Below are positions 10,774-52,018 of a DNA stretch of 52,018 nucleotides, one piece after another. Source of the DNA: Planctomycetota bacterium (lineage in GTDB: Bacteria; Pseudomonadota; Gammaproteobacteria; Eutrophobiales; Eutrophobiaceae); assembly GCA_047638675.1 (NCBI GenBank), contig JBLIML010000006.1, positions 1 to 52,018 on the forward strand, written 5' to 3'. The notes under the pieces were generated by a model that searched no databases, was not told the origin of the DNA, and saw nothing but the letters and a program-made list of their open reading frames with translations. Each line of letters opens with the position of its first letter. Position 1 is the stretch's first letter. The position numbers were made by a program, and so were the translations under genes.

Positions 10774-11832
10774 TCAACCAAAATTAATCTTCGCCTCAAG
10801 ATTGGTTCTCGAGTCGGCATTTCCAAGCGCTTCTTCAAGTTCAACACGGCCTTCTTTATAAAGTTCATAAAGCGCCATATCAAAGGTCTGCATGCCTTTT
10901 TGTCCGCTCTCCGCCATGGCCTCTTTAACGCTATTGAGTTCGCCTTTAAGAATCAATTCCGCAATATGCGGAGTGTTAATCAAAATCTCGATGGCGGCAC
11001 AGCGCTTACCATTAACTGCGAGAACCAGTCTCTGGGAAACGACTGCGCGTATGTTAAGTGACAGATCCATGAATAGCTGTTTGTGCATGTCCTGAGGAAA
11101 CATATTGATGACGCGTTCCATTGCCTGATTTGCATTATTGGCATGCAGAGTTGAAATCGCCAGATGGCCGGTATTCGATAGTTCCATTGCGGCTTCCATG
11201 GTGTCTCTATCGCGAATCTCGCCTATGAGAATAACATCGGGCGCTTCGCGCAAAGAGGCTTTAAGCGCATTAGGGTAGGACAGCGTATCAACGCCTACTT
11301 CGCGTTGATTAATTATTGATTTTTTATTGGGATGGCTAAATTCCACCGGATCCTCAATGGTTAAAATATGTCCAGACATGGTTTCATTACGATGATTGAT
11401 CATCGCTGCCAGGGTAGTCGATTTACCCGAACCGGTGGCGCCGACCATCAACAGTAAACCACGTTTGTTGCTAATCAAATCCTTCAATATTTCAGGGACG
11501 CCCAGATCTTCAATGGTCGGGATCTCACTGGGGATTCGACGTAGAACCATCGCCACTTCGCCACGTTGTTTAAATACATTGACACGAAAACGCGCTGAGC
11601 CATCAGGCATGGGAATCGCGAAGTCGCATTCCAGGTTCTCTTCAAATTGCTGGATCTGCTTCTCATTCATGATCCCGTAAGCTGCTGCCCTCGACATTTC
11701 ACCATCCAGTACGGTTTTACCCACCGCTGTGGCTTTGCCTTCCATTTTTATCTTCACCGGAGAATTTTCGGTGAAAAACAGATCAGAGGCATTTTTTTCA
11801 ACGACCAGTTTCAGGTAAGGAAGAATATCCAA
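10774..11832 (-). CDS. pilU: Type IV pilus retraction ATPase, second PilU paralog
   Basis: GATGSGKST, TIEDPVE, LREAPDVILIGEIRD, TLHANN, GMQTFD. TTG start. Confidence 0.88.
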   Translation of the reverse strand: MDILPYLKLVVEKNASDLFFTENSPVKIKMEGKATAVGKTVLDGEMSRAAAYGIMNEKQIQQFEENLECDFAIPMPDGSARFRVNVFKQRGEVAMVLRRIPSEIPTIEDLGVPEILKDLISNKRGLLLMVGATGSGKSTTLAAMINHRNETMSGHILTIEDPVEFSHPNKKSIINQREVGVDTLSYPNALKASLREAPDVILIGEIRDRDTMEAAMELSNTGHLAISTLHANNANQAMERVINMFPQDMHKQLFMDLSLNIRAVVSQRLVLAVNGKRCAAIEILINTPHIAELILKGELNSVKEAMAESGQKGMQTFDMALYELYKEGRVELEEALGNADSRTNLEAKINFG

Positions 11833-11879
11833 ACTTTTAAATCCCCTTTTTTATTGTTTTACTCGTGATTTATAAACTA

Positions 11880-13043
11880 TTACAACATCCCCGAATCTTC
11901 TTCGCTTGCTTCCAGGCTCAGGTGTTCCAGTCCAGCCATCTTGTCGCTGTCTTTGGCATCCTTGCCTTCCAATTTGATCCTCAAGCGAATTTCATTAACC
12001 GAATCAGCGTTGCGCAAAGCCTCTTCAAAAGAAATCTCGTCGGCTTGCTGTAGGTCAAACAAAGCCTGATCGAAAGTCTGCATGCCCATTTCTTTTGATT
12101 TTGCCATAAGGCTCTTGATCTCATGGACTTCGCCTTTCAGAATCAGGTCCGCCATTAATGGTGAATTAAGCAATATTTCGATAGCGGCCCGGCGACCCTT
12201 GCCATCAGGTGTTTTCACCAATCGCTGCGATATAATCGCTTTCAGGTTTAGCGATAAGTCCATCAGCAACTGTGTTCTACGTTCTTCCGGGAAAAAGTTA
12301 ATTATGCGATCCAGAGCCTGGTTTGAACTGTTTGCGTGTAAAGTTGCCATGGCCAGATGCCCTGTTTCTGCGAAGGCGATACCAAATTCCATGGTATCTT
12401 TATCCCGGATCTCGCCTAGCAGAATAACATCCGGTGCCTGTCTTAATGTGTTCTTAAGCGCAATCTCCCAGTCGTCAGTATCCACGCCGACCTCTCGTTG
12501 CATAATTACGCAGTTCTTGTGAGGATGAACATATTCAATGGGATCTTCGATGGTAATGATATGCCCATAGGTATTCTGATTACGATAATCGATCATTGCC
12601 GCAAGCGACGTTGATTTACCTGATCCTGTGCCGCCGACCATGATGATCAAACCGTTCTTCACCATAACGGTTTCTTTTAAAACCTCCGGCAATCCCAGTT
12701 TTTCAAGATTCGGCACTTCTGTCTCAATGACCCGCATTACTAATCCGCAAAAACTCTGTTGAATAAAGGCGTTGGCACGAAAACGTCCTATTCCCTGGGG
12801 CGCCACGGCGAAATTACATTCCTTGGTCGCTTCGTACTCTTTCAGCTGCCGATCATTCATGACGGCGTAGACCATGGCTTTGGTATTTTCCGGGGTTAGG
12901 GCGGTCTTTGACACTGGGGTCATTTTTCCCTGGACTTTCATGGCAGGCGGAAAACCGACTGTAACAAAGAGATCCGACCCTTTTTTTTCAATCATAAGCT
13001 TAAGCAGATCCTGCATAAACTTAACCGCCTGTTCTCGTTCCAT
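11880..13043 (-). CDS. pilU: Type IV pilus retraction ATPase PilU
   Basis: GGTGSGKST, TIEDPIE, LRQAPDVIL, ALDRIINFFPEE, GMQTFDQAL. Confidence 0.92.
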   Translation of the reverse strand: MEREQAVKFMQDLLKLMIEKKGSDLFVTVGFPPAMKVQGKMTPVSKTALTPENTKAMVYAVMNDRQLKEYEATKECNFAVAPQGIGRFRANAFIQQSFCGLVMRVIETEVPNLEKLGLPEVLKETVMVKNGLIIMVGGTGSGKSTSLAAMIDYRNQNTYGHIITIEDPIEYVHPHKNCVIMQREVGVDTDDWEIALKNTLRQAPDVILLGEIRDKDTMEFGIAFAETGHLAMATLHANSSNQALDRIINFFPEERRTQLLMDLSLNLKAIISQRLVKTPDGKGRRAAIEILLNSPLMADLILKGEVHEIKSLMAKSKEMGMQTFDQALFDLQQADEISFEEALRNADSVNEIRLRIKLEGKDAKDSDKMAGLEHLSLEASEEDSGML

Positions 13044-13075
13044 AGGGATTCCCCGTCTATATAAATATTGGCGTT

Positions 13076-14110
13076 CTAGAAATTGTCTCTATTGGTCGCC
13101 TTACTTCTGGCTTCATTGCGATCAACAATACCCTCTTTCACCAGCCGCTCCAGATCCTGATCAAGTGTCTTCATGCCAAAAGTCGCGCCTGTTTGAATAG
13201 CCGAATACATTTGTGCAATCTTGTTTTCCCTGATCAGATTTCGTATCGCTGGCGTACCGATCATGATCTCGTGAGCAGCGACTCGTCCACCACCTTTTTT
13301 CTTTAACAGTGCCTGCGATATTACTGCACGTAAGGACTCCGACATCATCGCCCTCACCATGTCTTTTTCTGCGGCTGGAAACACGTCAACTACACGGTCA
13401 ATGGTCTTGGCAGCGGAACTCGTGTGCAGTGTACCGAAAACCAGGTGACCGGTTTCCGCAGCGCCCAATGCCAGGCGAATGGTCTCAAGATCACGCATTT
13501 CCCCCACCAGTATCACGTCGGGGTCCTCGCGCAAGGCTGAGCGTAATGCTTCGGTGAAACCCAGGGTATCTCGATGGATTTCGCGCTGGTTCATCAGACA
13601 TTTTTTACTCTGGTGAACAAATTCAATGGGGTCTTCCAGGGTTAAAATATGGCCGTACTCGGTGTCGTTTTTGTAATCGACCATGGCCGCCAGGGTGGTG
13701 GACTTACCCGACCCGGTCGGCCCGGTAACGAGTACAACGCCTCTCGGATAGTCAGATATATCCTCAAATATTTTTGGTGCGCCCAACTGCTCAAGAGACA
13801 GAATGACAGAGGGAATAGTTCGAAATACGGCCGCTGAGCCACGGTTCTGATTAAAAGCGTTCACTCGAAAACGCGCCAAACCCGGCACCTCAAAAGAAAA
13901 GTCACATTCCAGGAACTCTTCAAAGTCCTTGCGGTTCTTATCGTTCATGATGTCGTACACCATGTCGTGGACTTCTTTGTGATCAAGTGGCGGCACATTG
14001 ACACGGCGCACATCGCCATCAACTCGTATCATAGGGGGTAAACCTGAGGACAAATGCAAATCTGAGCACCCGTTTTTTACACCAAACGCTAGTAATTCAC
14101 CGATATCCAT
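13076..14110 (-). CDS. pilT: Type IV pilus retraction ATPase PilT
   Basis: GPTGSGKST, LREDPD, and the PilT-specific AIRNLIRE motif. Divergent from yggS as usual. Confidence 0.96.
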   Translation of the reverse strand: MDIGELLAFGVKNGCSDLHLSSGLPPMIRVDGDVRRVNVPPLDHKEVHDMVYDIMNDKNRKDFEEFLECDFSFEVPGLARFRVNAFNQNRGSAAVFRTIPSVILSLEQLGAPKIFEDISDYPRGVVLVTGPTGSGKSTTLAAMVDYKNDTEYGHILTLEDPIEFVHQSKKCLMNQREIHRDTLGFTEALRSALREDPDVILVGEMRDLETIRLALGAAETGHLVFGTLHTSSAAKTIDRVVDVFPAAEKDMVRAMMSESLRAVISQALLKKKGGGRVAAHEIMIGTPAIRNLIRENKIAQMYSAIQTGATFGMKTLDQDLERLVKEGIVDRNEARSKATNRDNF

Positions 14111-26118: not shown

Positions 26119-27285
26119 CTAAACTTGCGACAATGAATACCCTCGCATCGTCTGGGCAAAGTCCTCAAGCGCTTTAATGCCAGTTTGTTCTGCCTGCTGA
26201 CACCACTCTTGCAAAGCATCAAGCAATCCTTCCTGGCTCGCCGTTTTTTCCTGCCAGAGCGCCTGTAGTTTTTGACGGTACTCATACACGACGGATAAAG
26301 AATGACTTTGTGCCAGCAAATCTTCCAGTCGCTGTTTTGCATGGGTGTCCATCAAATTCTCATGACGGATCAACCAACGTTTGCCACGCTTGAAAAAATC
26401 TTTGCTAGTTTCGCTCGCCTTAGACTTTTCTTCCTTATACACCTGTTTGACAACGTCTCTGGCATAGACAGACATGATGTGTAAGCGGTTGGCAATGACT
26501 GCTTTCACTGTGTCAAGATCAACACCCTCTTTCGCGCTATCATGAGCAAGCTTTGGCGCAAGTTTTTTCACTTTAGCCAAACCCAAAGATTGCATCAACT
26601 TGATATAGCTCCAGCCCAAATCAATTTCGTACCACTTGGAAGAAAATCGCGCTGAGCTGGCGAAGGCGTGGTGATTATTATGTAACTCTTCGCCACCGAT
26701 AAACATTCCAAGAGGGATGATATTAGTAGACGCATCGGCAGATTCAAAATTACGATAACCCCACCAATGACCCAGCCCGTTTATAACACCTGCCGCAAAC
26801 ATCGGAATCCATGCCATTTGAATCGCCCAGATAGTCAATCCAATAAAGCCGAAACAGGCCAAATTGAAGGCGAGCATGATGAAAATCCCCAGAAAAGAAA
26901 ACCGGCTGTAGAGCTTTCTTTCCAGATAATCATCGGGCGTTTGAAATCCGTATTTCTCAAGAGTCTCCGGATTACGGGCCTCCTTGCGATAAAGCTCGGC
27001 ACCTTGCAAAAGAACCTTCAACACACCGACTCTTTGTGGACTGTGTGGATCTTCATCAGCTTCCACACGGGCATGGTGCTTGCGATGAATAGCAACCCAT
27101 TCTTTGGTCACGGTCCCGGTAGTCAGCCATAACCACAGTCGAAAAAAATGACTGATGCAAGGATGAAGATCCAGGGCCCTGTGAGTTTGATGTCTATGCA
27201 AAAATATGGTGACACTGGCAATGGTGACATGGGTAAGTCCCAGCGTAATAAGGACATAAGTCCATACGGGCAAATCATTGTACAT
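26119..27285 (-). CDS. desA: Membrane delta-9 fatty acid desaturase (DesA family)
   Basis: His boxes HRHQTH, HRKHH, HNNHH; DPHSP; helical C-terminal extension. Confidence 0.9.
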   Translation of the reverse strand: MYNDLPVWTYVLITLGLTHVTIASVTIFLHRHQTHRALDLHPCISHFFRLWLWLTTGTVTKEWVAIHRKHHARVEADEDPHSPQRVGVLKVLLQGAELYRKEARNPETLEKYGFQTPDDYLERKLYSRFSFLGIFIMLAFNLACFGFIGLTIWAIQMAWIPMFAAGVINGLGHWWGYRNFESADASTNIIPLGMFIGGEELHNNHHAFASSARFSSKWYEIDLGWSYIKLMQSLGLAKVKKLAPKLAHDSAKEGVDLDTVKAVIANRLHIMSVYARDVVKQVYKEEKSKASETSKDFFKRGKRWLIRHENLMDTHAKQRLEDLLAQSHSLSVVYEYRQKLQALWQEKTASQEGLLDALQEWCQQAEQTGIKALEDFAQTMRGYSLSQV

Positions 27286-41943: not shown

Positions 41944-42855
41944 TTAACTATAGCCAAGCAGAACAGGGATATAGTGATCCACAAGCAAAAACGCGAACAA
42001 GGCCAACAAATAAACGATTGAATAAGAGAAGGTTTGCATCGCCAGACCATCTGAATGATTGCTTTGCATTTTGATTGCATAGTACAGAAACCACCCTCCT
42101 AGCACGACTGCGCCAAACAGATAAGTGGGCCCGCTCATCAATGTAACGTAGGGCAGCAGGCTGATAACAAATAAAATAACGGTATACAGCAAGATGTGAA
42201 GACGCGTGAATTTCACACCATGAGTGACCGGCAACATAGGCACGTCAGCTTTGGCATATTCTTCTCGCCGTGCAATAGCAAGCGCCCAAAAATGGGGCGG
42301 CGTCCAGGCGAAGATAATAAGAAACAGAAGTAGCGAGTTTGGATCCAGACTTCCGCTTATCGCGGTCCAACCGAGCACGGGTGGGGCGGCACCAGCTACG
42401 CCACCAATAACGATATTTTGGGGTGTCGCTCTTTTTAAATAAACAGAATAAATAAATCCATAACCAACCAGGGATGCCAGTGTGAGTACTGCGGTGAGAA
42501 AATTCACCATGACGGCAAGTATAATCATTGATGACAGACACAAACATCCAGCGAATATTATTGCCGCTTTCGTTGAAAGCTTACCTTTTGGCAAGGGACG
42601 TTTGCTTGTGCGTGCCATCAAAACATCTATTTTTTCATCGACGATGTGATTAATGCAGGCGGCCGATGCGGCAGCAAGACCAACCCCGAGACTACCAAAC
42701 AAAAAGGCGTCAAGAGGGATCATTCCCGGGCTTGATAAAAACATGCCTACGATCGCTGTAAAGACAATCATAGCCACTATCTTTGGCTTGCAGAGCGACA
42801 GAAAATCGCGCCAATCGAACGCGGAGATGGGTGCTGTTGTGATTGACTCTTTCAA
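41944..42855 (-). CDS. ctaB: Heme O synthase (protoheme IX farnesyltransferase)
   Basis: Motifs [37 protein letters not shown]. Confidence 0.95.
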
Positions 42856-42856
42856 T

Positions 42857-43876
42857 TTAATTCTCTGCGTTCCCGTTTTTGGAATATGAAAAATACAGCA
42901 ACGTGATTAAAGAAAGCACTAATAACGCGGCCACGGCATTATGCGCCACTGCAACAGGTAAGGGTAACACCAAAAGAACATTAGCGATGCCCAGGGAAAT
43001 CTGTGTCAGCAAAACGAACATGACCACACAGGCGCACCGTCTTAGAGCTTGATTCTTCATCATAAAAGCGCTAACTGCGAGACTTCCAATCGCGAGGAAT
43101 GTCAGTAAAGCGCCCACTCGGTGGGTAACATGTACAGCCGTTCGAGACATCGCATCAAGCACGCCGCCTTCATAATCTACGCCCAGGCCGCGCCAGAGAG
43201 TGAAACCTTCTCGAAAATCCATTTGCGGCCACCATTGTCCCTGACAGGTAGGAAAGTCTGTGCAAATCAGAGCGGAATAATTCGCGCTAGTCCAACCGCC
43301 GAGTGCAATTTGGCAAAAAACAAGCACCAGGCCTGCCGCAACCCACGGCGTCAACCTGCTTCTTTTATATCCGAGCAGAGGCTGGAATGCGGTAATCGAC
43401 AGCCAATACAACAAAGCCAGAATGGACATGCCACCAAGCAGGTGTGCGGTTACGATGACGGGTTTTAATAACAGCGTGACCGTCCACATTCCGAGCGCTC
43501 CCTGGAAAATCACCATCACTAACAAGGCATTCGGTGCAAATAACTGTGTAGGCCTTCCTTTCGCTCGCGACACCCAGCTTTTAATCGTCAAAAAGAGAAT
43601 AAGTAGTCCAAGAGTCTCTGCCGCATAACGATGCACCATTTCCTTCCAGGCTTTGCTCTTTTCCAGTGGTCGCTCGGGAAAAGCCTCGTTTGCCCGAGCC
43701 ATCGCGTCTGTGCCTTCCGGAACGAAAAACTCGCCATAGCATCCTGGCCAGTCAGGACAACCCAAGCCCGCATCGGAAAGTCTTGTATAGGCACCGAGGA
43801 CGATGACGCAATACGCTAACAAGCTTGCTAGCACATAGATGTAAAAATTAGTTTTGGAATAATTCATCGGCCGCAT
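42857..43876 (-). CDS. ctaA: Heme A synthase (CtaA/Cox15, Cys-pair type)
   Basis: Motifs [41 protein letters not shown]. Start uncertain (43876 or 43867). Confidence 0.92.
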
Positions 43877-44023
43877 GTTAATCAATGAAGGGGCAATCAC
43901 CCTGTCTCCAGGGCAGCGTATGCAGACCCCTTAGTGGAACGCCATTCAGGTAAGCAATATCGGTTTTCTTTTAATTCTGAAATGGTAGACGGCGGAGATT
44001 TCTACCGTCTACTAACTGCAGTG

Positions 44024-44407
44024 TTAATGTCCGTGACCCTCTTCCATCGCCAGAACTCCTGAAGCACCATCAAGGTATGTTGCCCGTATCACGTTGGTGT
44101 GATCTGCCTCAAAGCTCATAAGCGCTATCAACACCATTAACGCACCTGTTGGTATCAGAATTGCGCAGGCCATCGCCAGTCTTTCGTAATATAGATGCAT
44201 AAAAATGGCAGTAATGAAGCCCGCTTTTAAAAACATGAAAATGAGTATAAGCGTCCACCGAACCATCCCCTGGAACTGTAAATAATCAACCATATAAGAC
44301 AAGGCGCTAAGGACAAAAAGCAGCCCCCAAACCCAAAAATAAGTGGAAATTGGATGTTCTTGCGCTTCAGCCTCTGCAACCACCGCGACTGTTTTTGTTT
44401 CGCTCAT
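44024..44407 (-). CDS. Cytochrome c oxidase subunit IV family protein
   Basis: Three TMs; KAGFI.AIFMHL..ER. Confidence 0.85.
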   Translation of the reverse strand: MSETKTVAVVAEAEAQEHPISTYFWVWGLLFVLSALSYMVDYLQFQGMVRWTLILIFMFLKAGFITAIFMHLYYERLAMACAILIPTGALMVLIALMSFEADHTNVIRATYLDGASGVLAMEEGHGH

Positions 44408-44416
44408 ACCTAACTC

Positions 44417-45142
44417 CTACCAAAGATAAAAGAATGCAAAAATAAATACCCACACCAGGTCGACGAAATGCCAGTATAGGCCCATGATTTCAACAACCTC
44501 GTAACCGCCCCTGCGAGTGGTGAAAAAACCCGGCCTCATTTCGTCTAGATCGCCCCGCCAAACTTTCCTGGCAACAATCAGCAGAAAAATCACACCTATC
44601 GAGACGTGTACACCATGGAACCCTGTAATCATGAAAAAGCACGCACCGAACTGAGCGGCACCAAAGGGGTTGCCCCAGGGACGAACGCCCTCCGAAATTA
44701 GCTTGGTCCACTCGAAGGCTTGCATGCCGACAAATGAGGCGCCGAACATGGCGGTCAGCAGTATTAATAATGTCGTCATCTTACGGTTTTTCTCATAACC
44801 GAACTTAACCGCCATCGCCATCGTGCCGCTGCTGCTGATAAGAATGAAAGTCATAATGGCGATCAATATCAAAGGGATATGTTGCCCAAACAATGTTAAG
44901 GCAAAGACTTCGCTTGTATTAGGCCATGGCACGGTAGTGGACATACGTACCGTCATATAGCTGGTCAGAAAGCAGGTAAAAATAAACGTATCACTAAGGA
45001 GAAAAATCCACATCATAGCCTTGCCCCAGGGCACGCGCTTGAAGGTCAACTGATCTGATGACCAATCGTTAACAACGCCCTGTAGGCCCTCAACCAAAGC
45101 CACCGGTCTGCCAATCTCGTCTACTACAGCTTCGTTCGACAT
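44417..45142 (-). CDS. Heme-copper oxidase subunit III (CoxP-like)
   Basis: MWIFLLSD, T.ILI.SS, FF.ITGFHG.HV, LYWHFVDLVW. Confidence 0.9.
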   Translation of the reverse strand: MSNEAVVDEIGRPVALVEGLQGVVNDWSSDQLTFKRVPWGKAMMWIFLLSDTFIFTCFLTSYMTVRMSTTVPWPNTSEVFALTLFGQHIPLILIAIMTFILISSSGTMAMAVKFGYEKNRKMTTLLILLTAMFGASFVGMQAFEWTKLISEGVRPWGNPFGAAQFGACFFMITGFHGVHVSIGVIFLLIVARKVWRGDLDEMRPGFFTTRRGGYEVVEIMGLYWHFVDLVWVFIFAFFYLW

Positions 45143-45158
45143 ATATTTACCTTGTATT

Positions 45159-45830
45159 CTAAGTTGATAGCATCACACCAAATAAAATTACCCAAATCAC
45201 GAGTAGAAAGTGCCAGTAAATAGCACACAATTCCACGCTCGATCGTATGTTTGCTACTTTAGCACCACCAATCAGCTTAATGGTCGCCATACCCCAAACA
45301 ACCATTCCGCCCAAAAGATGCAAGGCATGAAGCCCAGTGATCAGATAAAAAAAGGCGTTTGCTGGGTTCGATTGTGCAAAATAGCCCGCTTTGAGTAATT
45401 CCTGCCAGGCCATGAACTGACCGGCCATAAAGGCGAAGGCGAAAAACCCGCCCGCAAGCAGGGCATTTCGGACAGCGCTGGAATCTCCATCTCTGGCACC
45501 AACACTCGCCCACTGCAACGCGATACTACTAAGCACAAGCACGCCCGTGTTTAGCCATAACAAATCAGGATCCGTTAAAGGCCGCCAGTCACCAACGTTC
45601 ATCCGCATCAGGTAAGCGCTGATAAACAACGAAAACATTGAAGTGATGACAGCAAGAAAAACAAATAGGCCAAGCTTCGCATTTGACAGATGCAAAGAAC
45701 GGCCGCTAAAATCCTCGTCTGACGCATATTTGGCGCTGGCGTCCCAGGGCTGAGTGTCGACCGATTGCTTCAACAGCCATCCGGCAACAACAATCATAAG
45801 CACAGCCATAAATATTAAAGTGATGGTCAT
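45159..45830 (-). CDS. Heme-copper oxidase subunit III (CoxO-like)
   Basis: KLGL.VFLA, NT.VL..SS, FFY.ITGLH.LH, YWHF...W. Confidence 0.88.
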   Translation of the reverse strand: MTITLIFMAVLMIVVAGWLLKQSVDTQPWDASAKYASDEDFSGRSLHLSNAKLGLFVFLAVITSMFSLFISAYLMRMNVGDWRPLTDPDLLWLNTGVLVLSSIALQWASVGARDGDSSAVRNALLAGGFFAFAFMAGQFMAWQELLKAGYFAQSNPANAFFYLITGLHALHLLGGMVVWGMATIKLIGGAKVANIRSSVELCAIYWHFLLVIWVILFGVMLST

Positions 45831-45848
45831 GATTAGTTCGCCTTCTGG

Positions 45849-47627
45849 CTAGCCCTCATCCTTGCTGCTTGCTTTCACACCCGATGGCGGAACATTCTGT
45901 GGGATAAAATCGTCCGCCGCGCCCGGAACACCAAAATCGTAGGCCCAACGATAAACCAGGGGCAACTCCTTACCAAAATTACCATGTGTTGGCGGTGTAT
46001 CGGGGGTCTGCCATTCCAGAGTAGTGGCCTGCCATGGATTACCGCCAGACTCCTTTCCGCGGAAATAACTGACGATAAGGTTATAGACAAACACCAATTG
46101 CACAGCGCCAACGATAAAAGCTGCTATTGAGATCCCGGCATTCAAGGTCATGGCGGACTCGGGTATAAAATCGGTGCCCTCAATAGAATAATATCTTCTT
46201 GGCACGCCCAGGAACCCGAGGTAGTGCATTGGATAGTAGATGGCGTAAGAGCCAACAAAAGTCACCCAGAAATGAAAATGACCCAGAGTATCGTTCAACA
46301 TACGACCCGTTATCTTCGGGTACCAGTGATATATCGCACCAAACACGACAAGCACCGGGGATACTGCCATCACCATATGGAAGTGGGCGACAACAAACAT
46401 CGTATCTGAAAGTGGCAGATCGATGGTGACGTTACCAAGAAATAGGCCCGTCAAGCCGCCGTTAATGAAGGTAAAAATAAAGCCGATGGCAAACAACATA
46501 GGCACGTTAAGCCGGATATTGCCCCGCCATAGAGTCAAAACCCAATTATAGACTTTAAGTGCCGTAGGCACCGCGATAATCAAGGTCGTGGTGGCAAAAA
46601 AGAAACCAAAGTAAGGGTTCATGCCACTAACATACATGTGATGAGCCCAGACAATGAAACTGAGTGCGCCAATAACTACGATTGCCCAGACCATCATGCG
46701 ATAACCAAAAATGTTTTTTCTGGCATTAACAGCGAGAAGATCAGAGACAATACCAAAAGCGGGTAGCGCAACGATATAAACCTCGGGGTGCCCAAAAAAC
46801 CAGAACAAGTGCTGAAACAAAATGGGACTGCCGCCAACATGATCGAGTTGCTGCCCTAATGAAATTATCGCAGGCATGAAAAAACTGGTGCCGATAAGCT
46901 TATCAAACAACATCATGATACAGGCAACCAATAGCGCAGGAAACGCCAGCAGTGCAAGCACTGTGGCCATAAAGATCCCCCAGATCGTCAGCGGCAAGCG
47001 CATAAGCGTCATGCCGCGCGTACGCGCCTGAAGCACGGTCACCACATAGTTCAGACCGCCCATAGTAAAGCCGACAATAAACAGGCACAGAGACACCAGC
47101 ATCAATATTATACCCAAGCCGTCGCCAGGCGTGCCCGGCAAAATAGCCTGAGGAGGATAAAGCGTCCAGCCAGCGCCGGTGGAGCCACCGGGGACGAAGA
47201 AACTCGCAACCAAGACCAGAACAGCTAGAAAATAAATCCAGAAGCTGAGCATGTTGACATAGGGAAACACCATGTCACGGGCGCCGACCATTAAAGGAAT
47301 CAGGTAATTACCAAAGCCACCAAGAAAAAGCGCTGTCAGCAAATAAACAACCATAATCATGCCATGCATTGTGACGAGCTGGATATATACCGAAGGATCG
47401 ATAAAAGCGAAGGAGCCGGGAAAACCCAGCTGCAAACGGATTAGCATGGACATCGCCAACGCCACAAGACCGATTCCCATCGCTGTGATTGAATACTGGA
47501 TTGCAATGACCTTGGCATCCTGACTGAAAACATATTTGCCTAACCACGTTTTCGCGTGATAGAGCTCCATCTCCGGGATTTCTGCCGCCCCTACAAACTC
47601 ATTATCGTCGTGCGCTGCAATAGACAT
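45849..47627 (-). CDS. Cytochrome c oxidase subunit I, A1 type (CoxN-like)
   Basis: TMHG, GWTLYPP, GHPEVY (A1 Glu), WAHHM, AHFH; D-channel Asp (ARDM) and K-channel Lys (PTALKV). Confidence 0.95.
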   Translation of the reverse strand: MSIAAHDDNEFVGAAEIPEMELYHAKTWLGKYVFSQDAKVIAIQYSITAMGIGLVALAMSMLIRLQLGFPGSFAFIDPSVYIQLVTMHGMIMVVYLLTALFLGGFGNYLIPLMVGARDMVFPYVNMLSFWIYFLAVLVLVASFFVPGGSTGAGWTLYPPQAILPGTPGDGLGIILMLVSLCLFIVGFTMGGLNYVVTVLQARTRGMTLMRLPLTIWGIFMATVLALLAFPALLVACIMMLFDKLIGTSFFMPAIISLGQQLDHVGGSPILFQHLFWFFGHPEVYIVALPAFGIVSDLLAVNARKNIFGYRMMVWAIVVIGALSFIVWAHHMYVSGMNPYFGFFFATTTLIIAVPTALKVYNWVLTLWRGNIRLNVPMLFAIGFIFTFINGGLTGLFLGNVTIDLPLSDTMFVVAHFHMVMAVSPVLVVFGAIYHWYPKITGRMLNDTLGHFHFWVTFVGSYAIYYPMHYLGFLGVPRRYYSIEGTDFIPESAMTLNAGISIAAFIVGAVQLVFVYNLIVSYFRGKESGGNPWQATTLEWQTPDTPPTHGNFGKELPLVYRWAYDFGVPGAADDFIPQNVPPSGVKASSKDEG

Positions 47628-47686
47628 CTAGATTATTCTCCTGGTGGTTATTTCAAATTGGCCTGGCGATCTCATTATTTTTCGTC

Positions 47687-48793
47687 TCAAAGGCCATCTT
47701 TGATATAGCTAATCAACGCTTCTAATTCCGCATCTGTCAAACTGCTAGGTGGCATCGATGGCGCATAACCATCCACTATTTTGGCATTTGGTGACAGGAT
47801 AGATTCTTTCAGATAATCGGCATCGACAACAATAGTGCTGCCGTCCGCCATCTTTTCCGTCTTGCCAAACAAGTCCTTCCATGTCGGCCCGATACTCGCA
47901 GCGCCATCTACACTATGGCAAACAAGACAGGCGTGAGACTCCGCTAGAGCACGGCCTTGTTCAGCCAAACTAAGGCCTTCCACTACAAGCGGTTTAGACT
48001 CCCCAGACACAGTCTGTGCATAGGTGGGGTAGGTTTTTAGCCAATCTTTGAAGTCTGCCTCTTCGTCCACAACCACATGGCCTCGCATGTTGTAATGACC
48101 TACTCCACACAGCTCTTCACACAGCGCATCGTATTTTCCCAGCCTGGTTGGCGTAAACCACATACTGGTAACGACACCCGGCACCATATCCATTTTCACG
48201 CGAAACTGAGCCACGGTATAGTTGTGTAATACATCTTGAGAACGCAGCAACGCGACTACTGGCCTGTCTATAGGGAGATGCACCTCGCCATTTGAAACAA
48301 GGACATCGTCCTGACCGTTAGGATCATCAGGATTCATGCCAAAAGGGTTGTCGAAGGAGACGTGCTGGGTATCAACAGTACCCAATACACCATCTTCACC
48401 CGGAAATCGATAGCTCCATTGCCATTGCTTACCAACAACCTCAAACACATCGGCGTCTTCTGGCGGATTAACGAACTTGGCCCATACATACAAGCCTGGT
48501 GTCAGCATTGCAGCAACGCCGATAGAAGTCAGAACGGTTAGCCAGACTTCCAGCTTTTTGTTTTCGGGCTCGTATTCAGATTTACGATCCTTATTGTAAC
48601 GAAATTTATACACGCACCAGGCCATGAACAGGTTAACTGCGACAAAAACCACACCGGTAACCCAGAATGTAATGTCAAGCGTGTCATCAATAGTACTCCA
48701 GTTGGAAGCAAGTTCTGTCAGATACCAGGGGCTTAGGAAATGAAAGAGTACGGAGCCTACAACCAGAAGAACCAGCGCTATTGCAAATACCAT
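47687..48793 (-). CDS. Cytochrome c oxidase subunit II with C-terminal cytochrome c (CoxM-like)
   Basis: CuA ligands DVLH...CEELCGVGHYNM; C-terminal CLVCH...M heme c domain. Confidence 0.93.
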   Translation of the reverse strand: MVFAIALVLLVVGSVLFHFLSPWYLTELASNWSTIDDTLDITFWVTGVVFVAVNLFMAWCVYKFRYNKDRKSEYEPENKKLEVWLTVLTSIGVAAMLTPGLYVWAKFVNPPEDADVFEVVGKQWQWSYRFPGEDGVLGTVDTQHVSFDNPFGMNPDDPNGQDDVLVSNGEVHLPIDRPVVALLRSQDVLHNYTVAQFRVKMDMVPGVVTSMWFTPTRLGKYDALCEELCGVGHYNMRGHVVVDEEADFKDWLKTYPTYAQTVSGESKPLVVEGLSLAEQGRALAESHACLVCHSVDGAASIGPTWKDLFGKTEKMADGSTIVVDADYLKESILSPNAKIVDGYAPSMPPSSLTDAELEALISYIKDGL

Positions 48794-49079
48794 ATTGATC
48801 TACATCCTCTGCCCGCCTAAAAAGCAGGATCTAAAGTTAAATAAACAACTGGGGTTCAAAAAAAGCGATGATAGCGGAAAAATTTATCTTAGACCACGAT
48901 TTTTCGTAGCGAATTAAGACAGTTATCCGAAAGTGATTTCAATTTGGATAATACTTTTGGTGCTGTAACCAAGGGCTTCCAGGTATGTCGGATTGGTTTT
49001 AGCCTAAAAAAACAAGCGGTATCGAGGATCCGTGCTGCACCTCCTGGAGCTCATAAAGAAAATGGCCCGTTTCAGCAGG

Positions 49080-49763
49080 CTACCGGTTTGACGCCATCCG
49101 CGCTCGCCAAACAGATAGTATTGAAATGCCTGTAATGACCCCTGCGAGGGCAATCGCCATTAAATAGACGCCGGTTTTCTCTGGAAGATAAGAGTCTTTT
49201 ACAAAGCTGGCGCTTAGGCCTGGCACGGCCCACAAATCGCCACTGCCCTTACCAACTTTCAGCTGAGCTTTCATGCCTTTTTCCATATGTTGTGCCATAT
49301 CACAGTGGACAAGATAGGTACGATCATCGCTGGGCACGATAAAAGAACCGGTTTGAGAATGCCCGCCCGCCGCCTCAAGATGAAACATCCCGCCGGGGTA
49401 GAGATATCTGGGCAATCCGTGAACCATCCATTGATGGCGAACTTCGTCCTGATTGATAAAAGTGACGGTAATGCGACTACAAGGCTCGACCTCGAACTGA
49501 TGTTGGCTCATGCCAAAGACAGTGCCCGGATAATCCGCAGCGTACTTCGTGCCAGCGCTTACTTCGAAGTCATAATCGCGCCCCAATTCTTCACAGTCTT
49601 CTGGCAAGTTGTGATGGTTGCTATTCATTACCATCCCCGTTCTGTCAAGTGTCATGTTGTGAAGAGCATGTTCGGCATGCGGATTCTCTGACTCGGCATT
49701 CACAGGAATAAATAAATTGGCCGCCAGAGCGCAGACTACACAAAAGATTTTTAAAGGCCCCAT
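49080..49763 (-). CDS. Membrane-anchored blue-copper cupredoxin
   Basis: Signal peptide, His/Met-rich N-terminus, type-1 Cu set H(RHQW)...HCDMAQHMEKGM, C-terminal TM. Confidence 0.82.
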   Translation of the reverse strand: MGPLKIFCVVCALAANLFIPVNAESENPHAEHALHNMTLDRTGMVMNSNHHNLPEDCEELGRDYDFEVSAGTKYAADYPGTVFGMSQHQFEVEPCSRITVTFINQDEVRHQWMVHGLPRYLYPGGMFHLEAAGGHSQTGSFIVPSDDRTYLVHCDMAQHMEKGMKAQLKVGKGSGDLWAVPGLSASFVKDSYLPEKTGVYLMAIALAGVITGISILSVWRARMASNR

Positions 49764-49805
49764 TCAATTATTCCGTGGTCGAGCAATCCCAGCACGCTTT
49801 CCAGG

Positions 49806-51476
49806 CTATCGCCTGCTAGAAAAAATCGCATTAATTGCCATTGCCACTAGAACACCCAGAGACAGGCCCAGGCCCAACAAACGCATCAACATCATCGGGT
49901 CTGACTTCGCGTCAGAAAATGTTCCCTCGCTCAAGCTCCCCCAGACCGGGGTTTCTTTTCGATAATAGGCTTCGGTAAAAAACTGTTTCAAGTCCATGCC
50001 CTGGGTGCGGGGCCAACCGTTTTCCTGTAAATAGTCTTCATAGACAATAGCGCTAACATTACCTCCCGGGCCCAAACCATCATTTGTGACGCCTTTTCCC
50101 TGATGATCATGAAACAACCAGATCCCCTGGCCATATGAATGCAGACCATCGTTGGTGGTTTGCAGTTCGAGATCCACGCGTTGCGCGCTGGCAATCCACA
50201 CCACGTCTCGAATGATTTGCGCTGCCGGTTTAACATTCACGCCATCATAGTGGGTAGCGGTCACCTTGTGTCCGTGGGTGTGCAGGGCGACACCAGTGCT
50301 GCCGCCGTTAACAACGCGTAATTTAATTCTCTCGTCGGGTTTTGCGACAATTAACGACTCCCGAAACGTGTAGGGAAACGACTTCCCGTTGAGCGTAAAA
50401 TAATCACTTTTTGCGTCCGTAATGTCGTAACGGCGATGCATATCTCTGGTAATCAGTCGCGGGTCGTTATGGGCCTGTATTCGATTATTCAAATCAATAT
50501 CAATATCCAGATACTGAAGATCGTACTCTCGATCGAAAGTTTCACTAACGGCGACCGACGGTGCTCGCACAAGGCCAGCGCCAACGTTCAGTGTTTGTAC
50601 CCAATTGTTAGGTCGGTTTTCCTCAATGACGAACAAGCCCTGCAATCCCATCATAATGTGTACATGAGTCTGCACATGGCAATGATAAAACATAGTGCCG
50701 GTCTGACGCGGCTGCATATTATAGGTGCGCGCATGGCCTGGCATCACCGGCTTTTCACTGGTAATTGGAACACCGTCATTACCTTCCCCTTCACTATCGA
50801 CATAGGGATGGTCGACACCGTGAAAATGGATCGTGTGTGGCATGTAGTGGCTATTTTCCAAGGTAATTTTTACATGATCGCCTTGTTCAACACGAATCGC
50901 TGGCGAGGGTAGACGCAACATGGAACGCGCCTCTACCGACTCAAAGTTTTTGGTGGCCATGCCAAACATCTTCGGCGCAAAAACCCAAAAACCCGGCTTG
51001 ATGCCCGGGGCAATGGCGTATTGCGCTGATGGCACGAGACTCTCTGGCGAGGCGCCATTGAGCTCCGCCACCTCGAGACGAATGTGGATTTCATCCGGGT
51101 CGCCATCACCATCCAGATCGCGTCCTTTCTCTACCGCATCCGGTGTCAGACCGCTGGCCAACAGAACCGCGTCGGAAACGTTATTCGTTCCGCGCACAAA
51201 AGCCGCGACGGCATTGGGGTTGTCAGCAACACAATTGGGCGAGCGGCGAACATTAACACCGGCAATAGTTTGAGCTTCCCGCCAGCCCAACAGGTCCTCA
51301 GGGCAAGGATCTTCGTTTTCTGTTATGCGCGAGTCTTTGCCTTCGGGTAGAGCGCGATAGGCATCTGCACCGAACCACTGACTCAGCTGCAGGCGCCACG
51401 CCATCGGATACCACTGTGGTGGAAAACACAAAAGCGCCAAAAGCGCGAAGATTATTAAGAGCCAACGAGAATACAT
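49806..51476 (-). CDS. Two-domain multicopper oxidase (type C-like), membrane-anchored
   Basis: Domain 1: PHTIHFHG and YHCHVQTHVHIMMGL (T1 Cu). Domain 2: LHTHGH and FHDH (no T1 Cys). Hydrophobic N- and C-termini. Confidence 0.85.
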   Translation of the reverse strand: MYSRWLLIIFALLALLCFPPQWYPMAWRLQLSQWFGADAYRALPEGKDSRITENEDPCPEDLLGWREAQTIAGVNVRRSPNCVADNPNAVAAFVRGTNNVSDAVLLASGLTPDAVEKGRDLDGDGDPDEIHIRLEVAELNGASPESLVPSAQYAIAPGIKPGFWVFAPKMFGMATKNFESVEARSMLRLPSPAIRVEQGDHVKITLENSHYMPHTIHFHGVDHPYVDSEGEGNDGVPITSEKPVMPGHARTYNMQPRQTGTMFYHCHVQTHVHIMMGLQGLFVIEENRPNNWVQTLNVGAGLVRAPSVAVSETFDREYDLQYLDIDIDLNNRIQAHNDPRLITRDMHRRYDITDAKSDYFTLNGKSFPYTFRESLIVAKPDERIKLRVVNGGSTGVALHTHGHKVTATHYDGVNVKPAAQIIRDVVWIASAQRVDLELQTTNDGLHSYGQGIWLFHDHQGKGVTNDGLGPGGNVSAIVYEDYLQENGWPRTQGMDLKQFFTEAYYRKETPVWGSLSEGTFSDAKSDPMMLMRLLGLGLSLGVLVAMAINAIFSSRR

Positions 51477-51552
51477 AGTTGCATCATACCGTTTTCGCGA
51501 AATCTTAGTACACTGTCCTTAGATCGAATTATGAATAGATGTTCGGCATAAT

Positions 51553-52017
51553 CTATTTACGCGCCGCCCTGTTATTATAAAAATATAGCGCTTGGGCTAG
51601 CACAAGCAGCGCAACAAAGAGCGGCACGTAGCCATAGCCAGACCCGCCCACCTGAAAGTAAAACACCGAGTGATAGGTTTTTTCCTTTTCAGGATGAAGA
51701 GCGGTGACGATGCCAATGTAACCGCCGCCCTCCTCGAATTCGTATCTAACTTTAAGCGCTCCCTCTGGCAGTATTACCGGTGGCTGGTAAAAAACAGTTA
51801 CCTTCTCAATATCATCAAAGACGAGAATATCATCCCAGTTTGCAAAGATGCCTATCTCGTTGACATCCTTGATAATGCGAAAATCAACCTGCATTTCCTT
51901 AAGAAAATCGTGCAAGTATTCAATTACGAAAATACTGTCGGCTACTTCAGGAATGTCTTCGCAAAACTCCTGGGTACCATTATTAAGCGGCTGATAACCG
52001 GTAAAATGCGCCGTTAA
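51553..52017 (-). CDS. PmoD/AmoD-like membrane-anchored protein (partial, 5' end beyond window)
   Basis: The frame is open to the window end: LTAHFTGYQPLNNGTQEFCEDIPEVADSIFVIEYLHDFLKEMQVDFRIIKD...YIGIV...F.F.VG plus a C-terminal TM. HFT.YQP..EFCEDIP..L.EM..DFRI resembles the PmoD/AmoD family as I recall it. Confidence 0.68.
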   Translation of the reverse strand, partial: LTAHFTGYQPLNNGTQEFCEDIPEVADSIFVIEYLHDFLKEMQVDFRIIKDVNEIGIFANWDDILVFDDIEKVTVFYQPPVILPEGALKVRYEFEEGGGYIGIVTALHPEKEKTYHSVFYFQVGGSGYGYVPLFVALLVLAQALYFYNNRAARK

Positions 52018-52018
52018 A

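Follow-up and report, generated by a model that had tools for sequence, protein, structure and literature searches.

Why do three copper proteins that face the periplasm stand directly ahead of a terminal oxidase, and what might they do for it? The question is raised by one end of a 52,018-nt stretch of DNA (the window), which is the whole of contig C6 in a 4.33-Mb genome assembly of 340 contigs with a completeness of 87.8%. The genes in question code for a PmoD-like protein, a multicopper oxidase (MCO) and a cupredoxin, and the genes of a predicted A1-type caa3 oxidase and of two heme synthases follow. Comparison with related loci revealed that the first three form a conserved cassette, the products of which are periplasmic copper proteins that are tethered to the membrane and have their redox sites intact. 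It is linked to this type of oxidase and, in other genomes, to copper membrane monooxygenases (CuMMO). Probably, the cassette is a helper module, not described to date, of CuMMO and caa3-type membrane copper enzymes.

The ten consecutive minus-strand genes reported in the initial annotation were all found at their coordinates in the open reading frame (ORF) listing of the window. Read along the minus strand, and with the gap between them included, they are:

51553-52017, minus strand: PmoD/AmoD-family gene, 3' part (154 codons), cut by the contig end (PDB 6cpd)
49806-51476, minus strand: MCO, 556 aa (Pfam Cu-oxidase_3/_2/Cu-oxidase)
49080-49763, minus strand: single-domain cupredoxin, 227 aa (weak Cu-oxidase_2 match, AlphaFold2 fold)
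48794-49079, minus strand: intergenic gap of 286 nt between the cupredoxin stop and the COX2 start
47687-48793, minus strand: COX2 with fused C-terminal cytochrome c domain (Pfam/NCBIfam, CuA-type motif, CLVCH)
45849-47627, minus strand: COX1, A1 type (TIGR02891, 650.6 bits, slightly below the cut-off of 670.75; GHPEV in helix VI)
45159-45830, minus strand: first COX3-like subunit (COX3, Pfam/NCBIfam)
44417-45142, minus strand: second COX3-like subunit (COX3, Pfam/NCBIfam)
44024-44407, minus strand: small subunit IV (COX4_pro, Pfam/NCBIfam)
42857-43900, minus strand: heme A synthase CtaA/COX15 (COX15-CtaA, 278 bits)
41944-42855, minus strand: heme O synthase CtaB/CyoE (TIGR01473, 318 bits)

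A scan for relatives of the cupredoxin with one genome per species gave 589 stretches, from which the best 80 loci were retained; most of these lie in genomes that bear the label Gammaproteobacteria, and marine or sediment samples are the source of many. The trio is conserved as a unit in these loci, and the recurring linkage to cox genes for which the initial annotation proposed a survey was found in part of them. An MCO gene stood directly upstream of the cupredoxin gene in 67 of the 68 loci with room for it (exception L076), and a PmoD-like gene stood upstream of the MCO gene in 56 of 61 (exceptions L022, L038, L045, L066 and L076). For the exception that was checked, L038 (genome G158), the PmoD-like gene was located after xmoCAB elsewhere in the genome. 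The spacers within the cassette were short, with medians of 120 and 93 nt between tblastn matches. Window-type cox genes lay beside the cassette in 15 of the 80 loci, and xmoCAB genes (AmoC, AmoA and PmoB families) directly upstream of it in 12, giving the order xmoCAB-pmoD-MCO-cupredoxin. When the count was limited to the 36 loci that are flanked on either side by 9 kb or more, cox genes were present in seven, CuMMO genes in six, both in none, and neither in 23. The cox genes occurred co-directionally downstream, upstream, divergently and convergently; with cox within 10 kb in 7/36 fully flanked loci and at least four orientations, the linkage between cassette and cox genes exceeds chance. 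In the closest relatives (L006, G080, which is L007, and G100) the order trio-COX2-COX1-COX3-COX3-COX4 on one strand is the same as in the window; G100 has, upstream of the trio and in the same orientation, a canonical aa3 operon that includes Cox11 and then ctaA. In one genome with two canonical PmoB copies (E = 5e-198) the trio lies far away from the pmoB genes. The PmoD-like protein there contains C-x9-H, and the architecture of the MCO and cupredoxin is that found in the window.

The genomic distribution of the cassette was determined in an even sample of the class, in which cupredoxin was searched in 401 genomes and cox1 and PmoB in 400 (G422 was unscored). Cupredoxin was present in 15 genomes, window-type cox1 in 10, seven of them with cupredoxin, and PmoB in 13, 12 of them with cupredoxin. 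All 15 cupredoxin genomes contained PmoB or window-type cox1, and four contained both. These counts partly rest on the unpublished genomes G214, G316 and G482, which are among the positives, and the sampled genomes are related and hence not independent counts. Window-type cox1 was found in 33 of the first 50 carrier genomes, compared with the 10 of 400 genomes of the class sample; such a tie to a single, rare type of oxidase is more in keeping with a direct partner than with a copper service of a general kind. Among the 80 carriers, PmoB was found in 22 (17/50 and 5/30) and was absent from 58, the PmoB-free carriers including the closed chromosome L059 and the 98% complete genome G100. The functional link between trio and oxidase proposed in the initial annotation is in agreement with the 15/80 loci and 33/50 genomes, and it has to be widened because the tie to CuMMO is at least as tight (12/13 genomes). 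In the order of the window's genome (126 genomes searched), cupredoxin was present in 10 genomes across 4 of 34 genera. Full-length PmoB was present in six, all six with cupredoxin, and window-type cox1 (at least 71% identity) in 12.

The truncated PmoD-like ORF at 51553-52017 matched no Pfam or NCBIfam family. As a single sequence it matched the PmoD structure 6cpd with E = 1.1e-5, and a profile of 34 homologs matched residues 4-128 of the 128-residue 6cpd chain with E = 3.7e-22. The missing 5' part of the gene is carried by contig C210 (L003:6187-6696, probable start L003:6343), which overlaps the last 231 nt of the window in reverse orientation with one mismatch. Given this overlap, the missing 5' part and the lack of a second copy of the gene in the rest of the assembly, C210 is likely to continue the window end. 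A contig from run X3 reaches 5655 nt past position 52018, which is no proof of the C6-C210 join. The N-terminus encoded on C210 contains a signal peptide, HGG and C-x9-H. By alignment and hydropathy, the PmoD-like proteins comprise a signal peptide, a domain that is soluble and, at the C-terminus, a transmembrane-like segment (128-146). C36-x9-H46-x14-C61 (L006 numbering) was invariant in the 34 homologs.

The window protein shares with PmoD/AmoD (6CPD, PMC6189053) a homologous periplasmic domain, signal peptide, C-terminal helix and the two invariant cysteines of the CxnC core, C36 and C61. It differs from 6CPD by its C-x9-H motif: the CuA-forming Cx7MxHxnC set of operon-type PmoD is absent, and the Met position is occupied by Lys, Thr or other residues. 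In gammaproteobacterial CuMMO operons the PmoD-like gene directly follows xmoB, whereas the window type falls within a clade, comprising 34 of 45 tree rows, whose members never adjoin CuMMO and also occur in CuMMO-free genomes. This maximum-likelihood tree comprised 45 proteins, 42 of 44 clustered ones (two were dropped for X) and three CuMMO-linked ones from elsewhere, and it split into two clades with support values of 100/99. The 11 members of the first all adjoin CuMMO; the 34 members of the second comprise 12 cox-adjacent ones scattered among 22 with neither neighbour. The window's own gene was left out because it is divided between two contigs. Its nearest relative, that of L006 (74% identical), is in the 34-member clade, and the genome of L006 also holds a separate xmoCAB-pmoD locus. 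PMC6189053 states that all PmoD genes occur in genomes with a CuMMO operon, and PmoD/AmoD is called specific to methane and ammonia oxidizers there and in a 2026 review (PMC13058606). The connection to pmo/amoCAB raised in the initial annotation has no counterpart in the window's genome, where, at 87.8% completeness, no AmoA, PmoB or AmoC was found.

The MCO gave best PDB matches to 2zwn (8.6e-31) and 3g5w (1.1e-28), each in two stretches. Its AlphaFold2 model had a predicted local distance difference test score (pLDDT) of 67.3; the top Foldseek match was 3g5w (E = 5e-18), the best fold matches were 2zwn and 3g5w with TM scores of 0.64-0.66 on the target, and 9cck, the structure of archaeal MCO4, was also among the matches. 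Alignment of 25 MCOs identified H217, H219, H265-C266-H267, H273, M276, H399, H401, H456 and H458 as invariant, a set that covers the type 1 (T1) copper ligands in the first domain as well as the complete trinuclear site with its eight His. By sequence and model, the window MCO is assigned as a two-domain multicopper oxidase with the T1 site in the first domain. 3G5W from Nitrosomonas europaea and the metagenomic mgLAC (2ZWN), its best sequence and fold matches, likewise have the T1 motif in the first domain and a complete set of trinuclear His. The window MCO differs from them by approximately 230 additional residues, made up of an N-terminal helix, an extension of approximately 150 aa that contains DLDGDGDPD and, at the C-terminus, a tail bearing a membrane helix; the N-terminal extension is conserved in the family (25 sequences). 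Hydropathy analysis indicated transmembrane-like segments at both ends of the MCO (1-19 and 533-551) and C-terminal hydrophobic helices in all three copper proteins, in line with the membrane anchors that had been assigned to them.

The cupredoxin consists of a signal peptide, a His/Met-rich N-terminal stretch, the T1 ligands and a C-terminal membrane helix. It has 3746 homologs that are unnamed or labelled plastocyanin. The T1 ligands assigned by motif (H110, C154, H159 and M164) were invariant in 79 of 79 aligned cupredoxins (two of the 80 loci were dropped for a stop or X), as were R109, Q111, M113, H115, E130, H153, D155, Q158 and E161. The earlier identification of the trio as PmoD-like protein, two-domain MCO and T1 cupredoxin was therefore right (6cpd, 2zwn/3g5w and the invariant T1 ligands, respectively). 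No match to the curated Copper-bind family (plastocyanin/azurin) was obtained for the cupredoxin; Pfam yielded only the weak Cu-oxidase_2 match, PDB sequences gave nothing below E = 0.4, and the Protein Atlas gave its own clusters and weak leads to sulfocyanin. The AlphaFold2 model (pLDDT 78) showed a cupredoxin fold with a C-terminal helix at 197-226, and Foldseek matched it to laccase domains (E about 4e-6) and to auracyanin (TM score 0.57). A weak hhalign match (probability 2.9%, E = 0.015) places RHQWMVHG of the cupredoxin on PHTIHFHG of MCO domain 1, and HCD on HCH. Read in this way, the cupredoxin would be a copy of the T1 domain of the MCO in which two of the four trinuclear His appear to be kept and an invariant Met and Asp stand at the other two positions. 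M113, H115, H153 and D155 may then form a putative second copper site that is connected to T1 in the way known from nitrite reductase and from MCO domains. The cupredoxin FtrB has reportedly been proposed as a metal oxidase.

The partner enzyme encoded in the window was assigned by family matches and motifs as an A1-type caa3 oxidase composed of COX1 with a helix-VI Glu motif, COX2-cytochrome c, COX3 and subunit IV, which bears out the earlier assignment of a cytochrome c-fused A1 oxidase with ctaA and ctaB. The CuA-type motif C-x-E-x-C-G-x2-H-x2-M and CLVCH were read directly in the COX2 protein; we take GHPEV in COX1 and the CuA-type motif in COX2 to be marks of this oxidase type. Duplication of COX3 after COX1 is shared with CoxMNOP-like or subtype a-III operons, from which the window differs by the cytochrome c fused to subunit II; the likeness to CoxMNOP itself is a presumed one. 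Duplicated COX3 is named as a known COX operon subtype in a preprint (10.1101/2020.03.01.968255).

How could the three copper proteins serve such different enzymes? The reading that we favour, at a probability of about 0.4, is that the cassette forms a membrane-tethered copper redox module acting as copper-based electron relay for CuMMO and the A1-type caa3 oxidase. It is preferred on the basis of the specificity for one oxidase type, the invariant T1 sites, and the precedents of archaeal MCO4 and AcoP. All three products would be held at the periplasmic face of the inner membrane by their C-terminal helices, and the cassette would serve CuMMO and, in the window, the oxidase encoded directly downstream. 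The T1 copper of the cupredoxin would exchange electrons with the T1 copper of the MCO, in the manner of the pendant cupredoxin of archaeal MCO4, and the cupredoxin would do likewise with the partner enzyme, which is CuMMO elsewhere and, in the window, the oxidase by way of the cytochrome c/CuA domain in its subunit II. The MCO would be able to hand surplus electrons to O2, and the PmoD-like protein would bind copper at its Cys-His-Cys site and act as adaptor to the partner enzyme. What we infer for such a relay is that the proteins touch, which way the electrons flow and where they come from.

The first precedent, archaeal MCO4 (Nmar_1354, PDB 9CCK, PMC11761707), likewise combines a two-domain MCO with an additional T1 cupredoxin in CuMMO organisms. 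The T1 copper of its pendant cupredoxin is 13.5 Å from that of the MCO, and an archaeal MCO with pendant cupredoxin oxidizes NH2OH with O2 (PMC11761707). The archaeal cupredoxin is fused at the C-terminus, and its lineage is said to be unique to ammonia-oxidizing archaea (PMC11761707), whereas the cupredoxin of the window is separate, membrane-anchored, endowed with extra invariant residues and encoded near a PmoD-like gene. The second precedent, the Acidithiobacillus rus operon, has a cupredoxin gene directly before COX2 and the heme A genes at its end (10.1101/2020.03.01.968255). As in the window, a membrane-anchored cupredoxin (AcoP) is encoded before COX2-COX1-COX3-COX4, with the heme A/O synthases last, and the oxidase is bound by AcoP (PMC10804444). 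The anchoring helix is N-terminal in AcoP and C-terminal in the window cupredoxin; no AcoP sequence match to the latter was obtained in PDB searches, the window lacks a Cyc2/Cyc1/rusticyanin context, and the constant partner of its cupredoxin, unlike that of AcoP, is the MCO and not the oxidase.

Several observations weigh against the electron relay. The tie between cassette and oxidase is not obligate: 10 of the 12 order genomes with window-type cox1 showed no cupredoxin, the exceptions being the window's genome and G100 (the contig of G080 stops inside COX2, and its cox1/cassette state is not readable in this tally), and about seven cassette genomes of the order are without this oxidase. Neither partner enzyme was nearby in 23 of the 36 fully flanked loci. 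The PmoD-like protein, without the Met of the CuA-forming motif, suits copper handling at least equally, and the second invariant His/His/Met/Asp cluster of the cupredoxin looks more metal-binding or catalytic than would be expected of a plain carrier. An MCO normally sends electrons straight to O2 without conservation of energy, which makes a relay role awkward. Finally, the cox genes seem to be under a regulatory region of their own.

This last point derives from the 286-nt gap at 48794-49079, which corresponds to the gap of about 290 bp for which a separate promoter had been considered, a reasonable caveat in view of the following result. In the window, L006, G100 and G080 the gap varies between about 195 and 440 nt; in an alignment, the approximately 130 nt next to the COX2 start proved to be conserved in all four, the distal part being variable. 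The conserved stretch with a variable remainder suggests that the cox genes have a separate regulatory region. Within this leader (48800-48930 in the window), a stem-loop CCTGC-N7-GCGGG lies just ahead of the COX2 ribosome-binding site, and a G-U pair in it becomes A-U in G100. A pattern search for the leader in 90 loci matched L006 and L087 only. No sigma-70-like site was found in the 48794-49079 gap, the region has fewer such sites than shuffled sequences, and a weak terminator-like hairpin lies at the cupredoxin stop (49080-49065). Metatranscriptome run X21 gave three small contigs, all inside COX2 (47715-48301) and none covering the gap or any part of the trio. In 37 loci, the sequence upstream of the PmoD-like gene showed neither FNR, CueR, Fur or CopR boxes (consensus patterns) nor shared 8-mers. 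An ORF of approximately 172 aa without Pfam or NCBIfam family is located beside COX2 or ctaB of the window-type oxidase in nine loci (e.g. L006:16351-16866), often between cupredoxin and COX2; it had no tblastn homolog in the window's genome.

The alternative that comes closest to the electron relay, ranked second to it and less probable though a serious possibility, is copper provisioning or redox conditioning, in which the Cu(I)/Cu(II) state would be set, and copper delivered or repaired, for the periplasmic sites of CuMMO and oxidase. Here the PmoD-like protein would carry copper, the second site of the cupredoxin would bind labile copper, and the MCO would send electrons to O2. Both partners are cuproenzymes metallated from the periplasm, and C36, H46 and C61, all of them invariant, are reminiscent of the ligands of a chaperone. 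According to PMC6189053, loss of pmoD in a methanotroph led to a copper-dependent growth defect, and non-CuA classes of PmoD, the Cx9H class among them, bind copper without forming CuA. The invariance of M113, H115, H153 and D155 (79/79) at the positions of MCO trinuclear His fits a second site as well, with the reservation that the underlying hhalign match has a probability of 2.9%. A gene for a copper chaperone is close by: on C210, a SCO1/SenC gene is divergent from the PmoD-like gene and belongs to a minus-strand group (L003, 2516-6077) of SCO1/SenC, a ccoN-like subunit I (244.8 bits; family cut-off 583), a ccoO-like gene and a 264-aa cytochrome c. This group reads as a divergent cluster for a C-family oxidase or an NO-reductase-like enzyme, equipped with a copper chaperone of its own.

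Against copper provisioning stands the fact that the cassette is linked to a single rare type of oxidase and not to the heme-copper oxidases at large. Moreover, Cox11 was detected in 107 of the 126 order genomes, including all five congeners and all nine other cassette genomes, and the genomes G005, G020 and G021 (98-100% complete), which have the window-type oxidase and no Cox11, have no cassette either; it follows that the cassette is no stand-in for the usual assembly factors, and a Cox11/Sco/PCuAC substitute was discarded. The absence of copper assembly genes that had been noted before holds within the window, where family scans of the proteins found no ctaG/cox11, sco, PCuAC or surf1; for sco it is true of the visible window only, given the SenC gene on the overlapping C210 just beyond its end. 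An alternative copper delivery in place of missing ctaG and sco is weakened by that SenC gene and by Cox11 in 9/9 cassette genomes. That Cox11, PCuAC and SURF1 were not found in the window's genome carries no weight at 87.8% completeness, with Cox11 in 5/5 congeners, and a canonical aa3 operon of this genome may be unassembled. No CopC/D, PCuAC or Sco recurred beside the cassette in the 80 loci. The extended pmo/amo operons with copC, copD and PCuAC, and the cop systems, resemble the present case in having copper-binding accessory proteins beside CuMMO; the cassette differs in being without adjoining CopC, CopD or PCuAC and in having C-x9-H and not the Cx8M class.

It is improbable that the cassette is a self-standing periplasmic oxidase for a small substrate, such as hydroxylamine from a promiscuous CuMMO, Mn(II), Fe(II) or phenolics, with cox adjacency as a result of island co-transfer. 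Such an oxidase would account for the 23/36 fully flanked loci with neither partner nearby and for the patchy distribution (10/126 order genomes, 15/401 in the class sample); the MCO appears catalytically complete by its ligand set, genes related to insertion sequences (IS) lie directly upstream in L006 and G352, and the archaeal cupredoxin-bearing MCO oxidizes NH2OH with O2 (PMC11761707). However, CuMMO or the window-type oxidase accompanies the cassette in 15 of its 15 genomes in the class sample, a single co-transfer is hard to uphold with cox adjacency in several orientations and on scattered branches of the PmoD tree, and hydroxylamine removal leaves the CuMMO-free carriers (58/80) unexplained.

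It is very unlikely that the cassette is a generic CopA/CueO-type unit for copper resistance that includes accessory proteins binding copper: cop-type periplasmic resistance systems do combine an MCO with small copper-binding cupredoxin-like proteins, and the MCO gave a weak partial match to NCBIfam copper_res_A (55.5 bits, cut-off 479), but this MCO has no Met-rich stretch (3.1% Met; at most four per 30 residues) and no twin-arginine signal was found in it, CueR/CopR boxes are missing upstream in the 37 loci, the co-occurrence with CuMMO and one oxidase type is tight, and the flanking genes, which gave the initial annotation's refuting case no support, disfavour a resistance island, with no CopC/D, PCuAC, Sco, Cus (CusCBA), CopRS, CueR or P1B ATPase among the 34 recurrent and 150 of the 154 further flanking clusters and a 94-aa CopB fragment as sole match of this type.

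A more far-reaching version of the electron relay and of copper provisioning, which we regard as unlikely, is that the cassette is the missing periplasmic partner of gammaproteobacterial CuMMO, as electron donor and/or copper loader, and was recruited by a dedicated caa3 oxidase in CuMMO-free bacteria. The cupredoxin would then be an MCO-type domain whose T1 copper is wired through Cys-His to a second, interfacial copper site. If true, bacteria would possess a copper-only electron-transfer branch like the one postulated for ammonia-oxidizing archaea.

The families of all parts are already known, and some PmoD classes have been noted near multicopper oxidase genes, this neighbourhood being tied to the Cx8M class (PMC6189053). 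In the literature searched, the supplementary neighbourhood tables of PMC6189053 aside, no description was found of the fixed PmoD-MCO-cupredoxin cassette; the same search yielded none of its near-universal presence in the sampled CuMMO Gammaproteobacteria or of a CuMMO-free PmoD clade beside a caa3 oxidase, and the cassette is mentioned neither in a Tenderiales preprint nor in a Porticoccaceae CuMMO preprint. The results bear on the role of PmoD/AmoD and on the electron and copper supply of pMMO/AMO-type enzymes. To these the locus adds a PmoD clade living without CuMMO, a membrane-anchored two-domain MCO and a putatively MCO-derived cupredoxin as constant partners of the PmoD-like protein, and a cassette that is present in nearly every CuMMO gammaproteobacterial genome sampled and otherwise occurs with one rare caa3 type. 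Cultured carriers that are not methanotrophs allow its function to be studied apart from methane or ammonia metabolism, with defined partners for testing.

The remaining neighbours of the cassette vary by lineage across the 80 loci. Directly upstream of it lie an IstB-like IS21 helper in L006 (6497-7522) and a transposase-looking ORF of 436 aa in L093 (4128-5438); mobile-element genes at this position in two genomes fit the patchy distribution of the cassette. In L018 (2216-3214), and also in L035 and L051, a metal-permease-family protein (HupE/UreJ_2) and a peptidyl-prolyl isomerase are encoded directly upstream. Genome G513 (L094 and L095), which has a canonical PmoB, contains three cupredoxin copies, two of them scoring identically; one is accompanied by an MCO, one by a PmoD-like gene only, and one stands apart.

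The remainder of the window is gammaproteobacterial-type housekeeping DNA and includes ftsYEX-rpoH, slmA and pilT-like genes. Three PilT/T2SSE-type ATPase genes follow each other on the minus strand at 10777-14110. A 388-aa ORF on the same strand (26122-27285) combines the N-terminal part of a fatty-acid desaturase with the C-terminal part of an ISL3 transposase and is probably a gene broken by an insertion sequence. Contig C6 overlaps other contigs of the assembly at both ends: at the end opposite to the cassette (1-155), at least the first 100 nt, which were the stretch tested, recur near the end of contig C51, implying an overlap of 155 nt.

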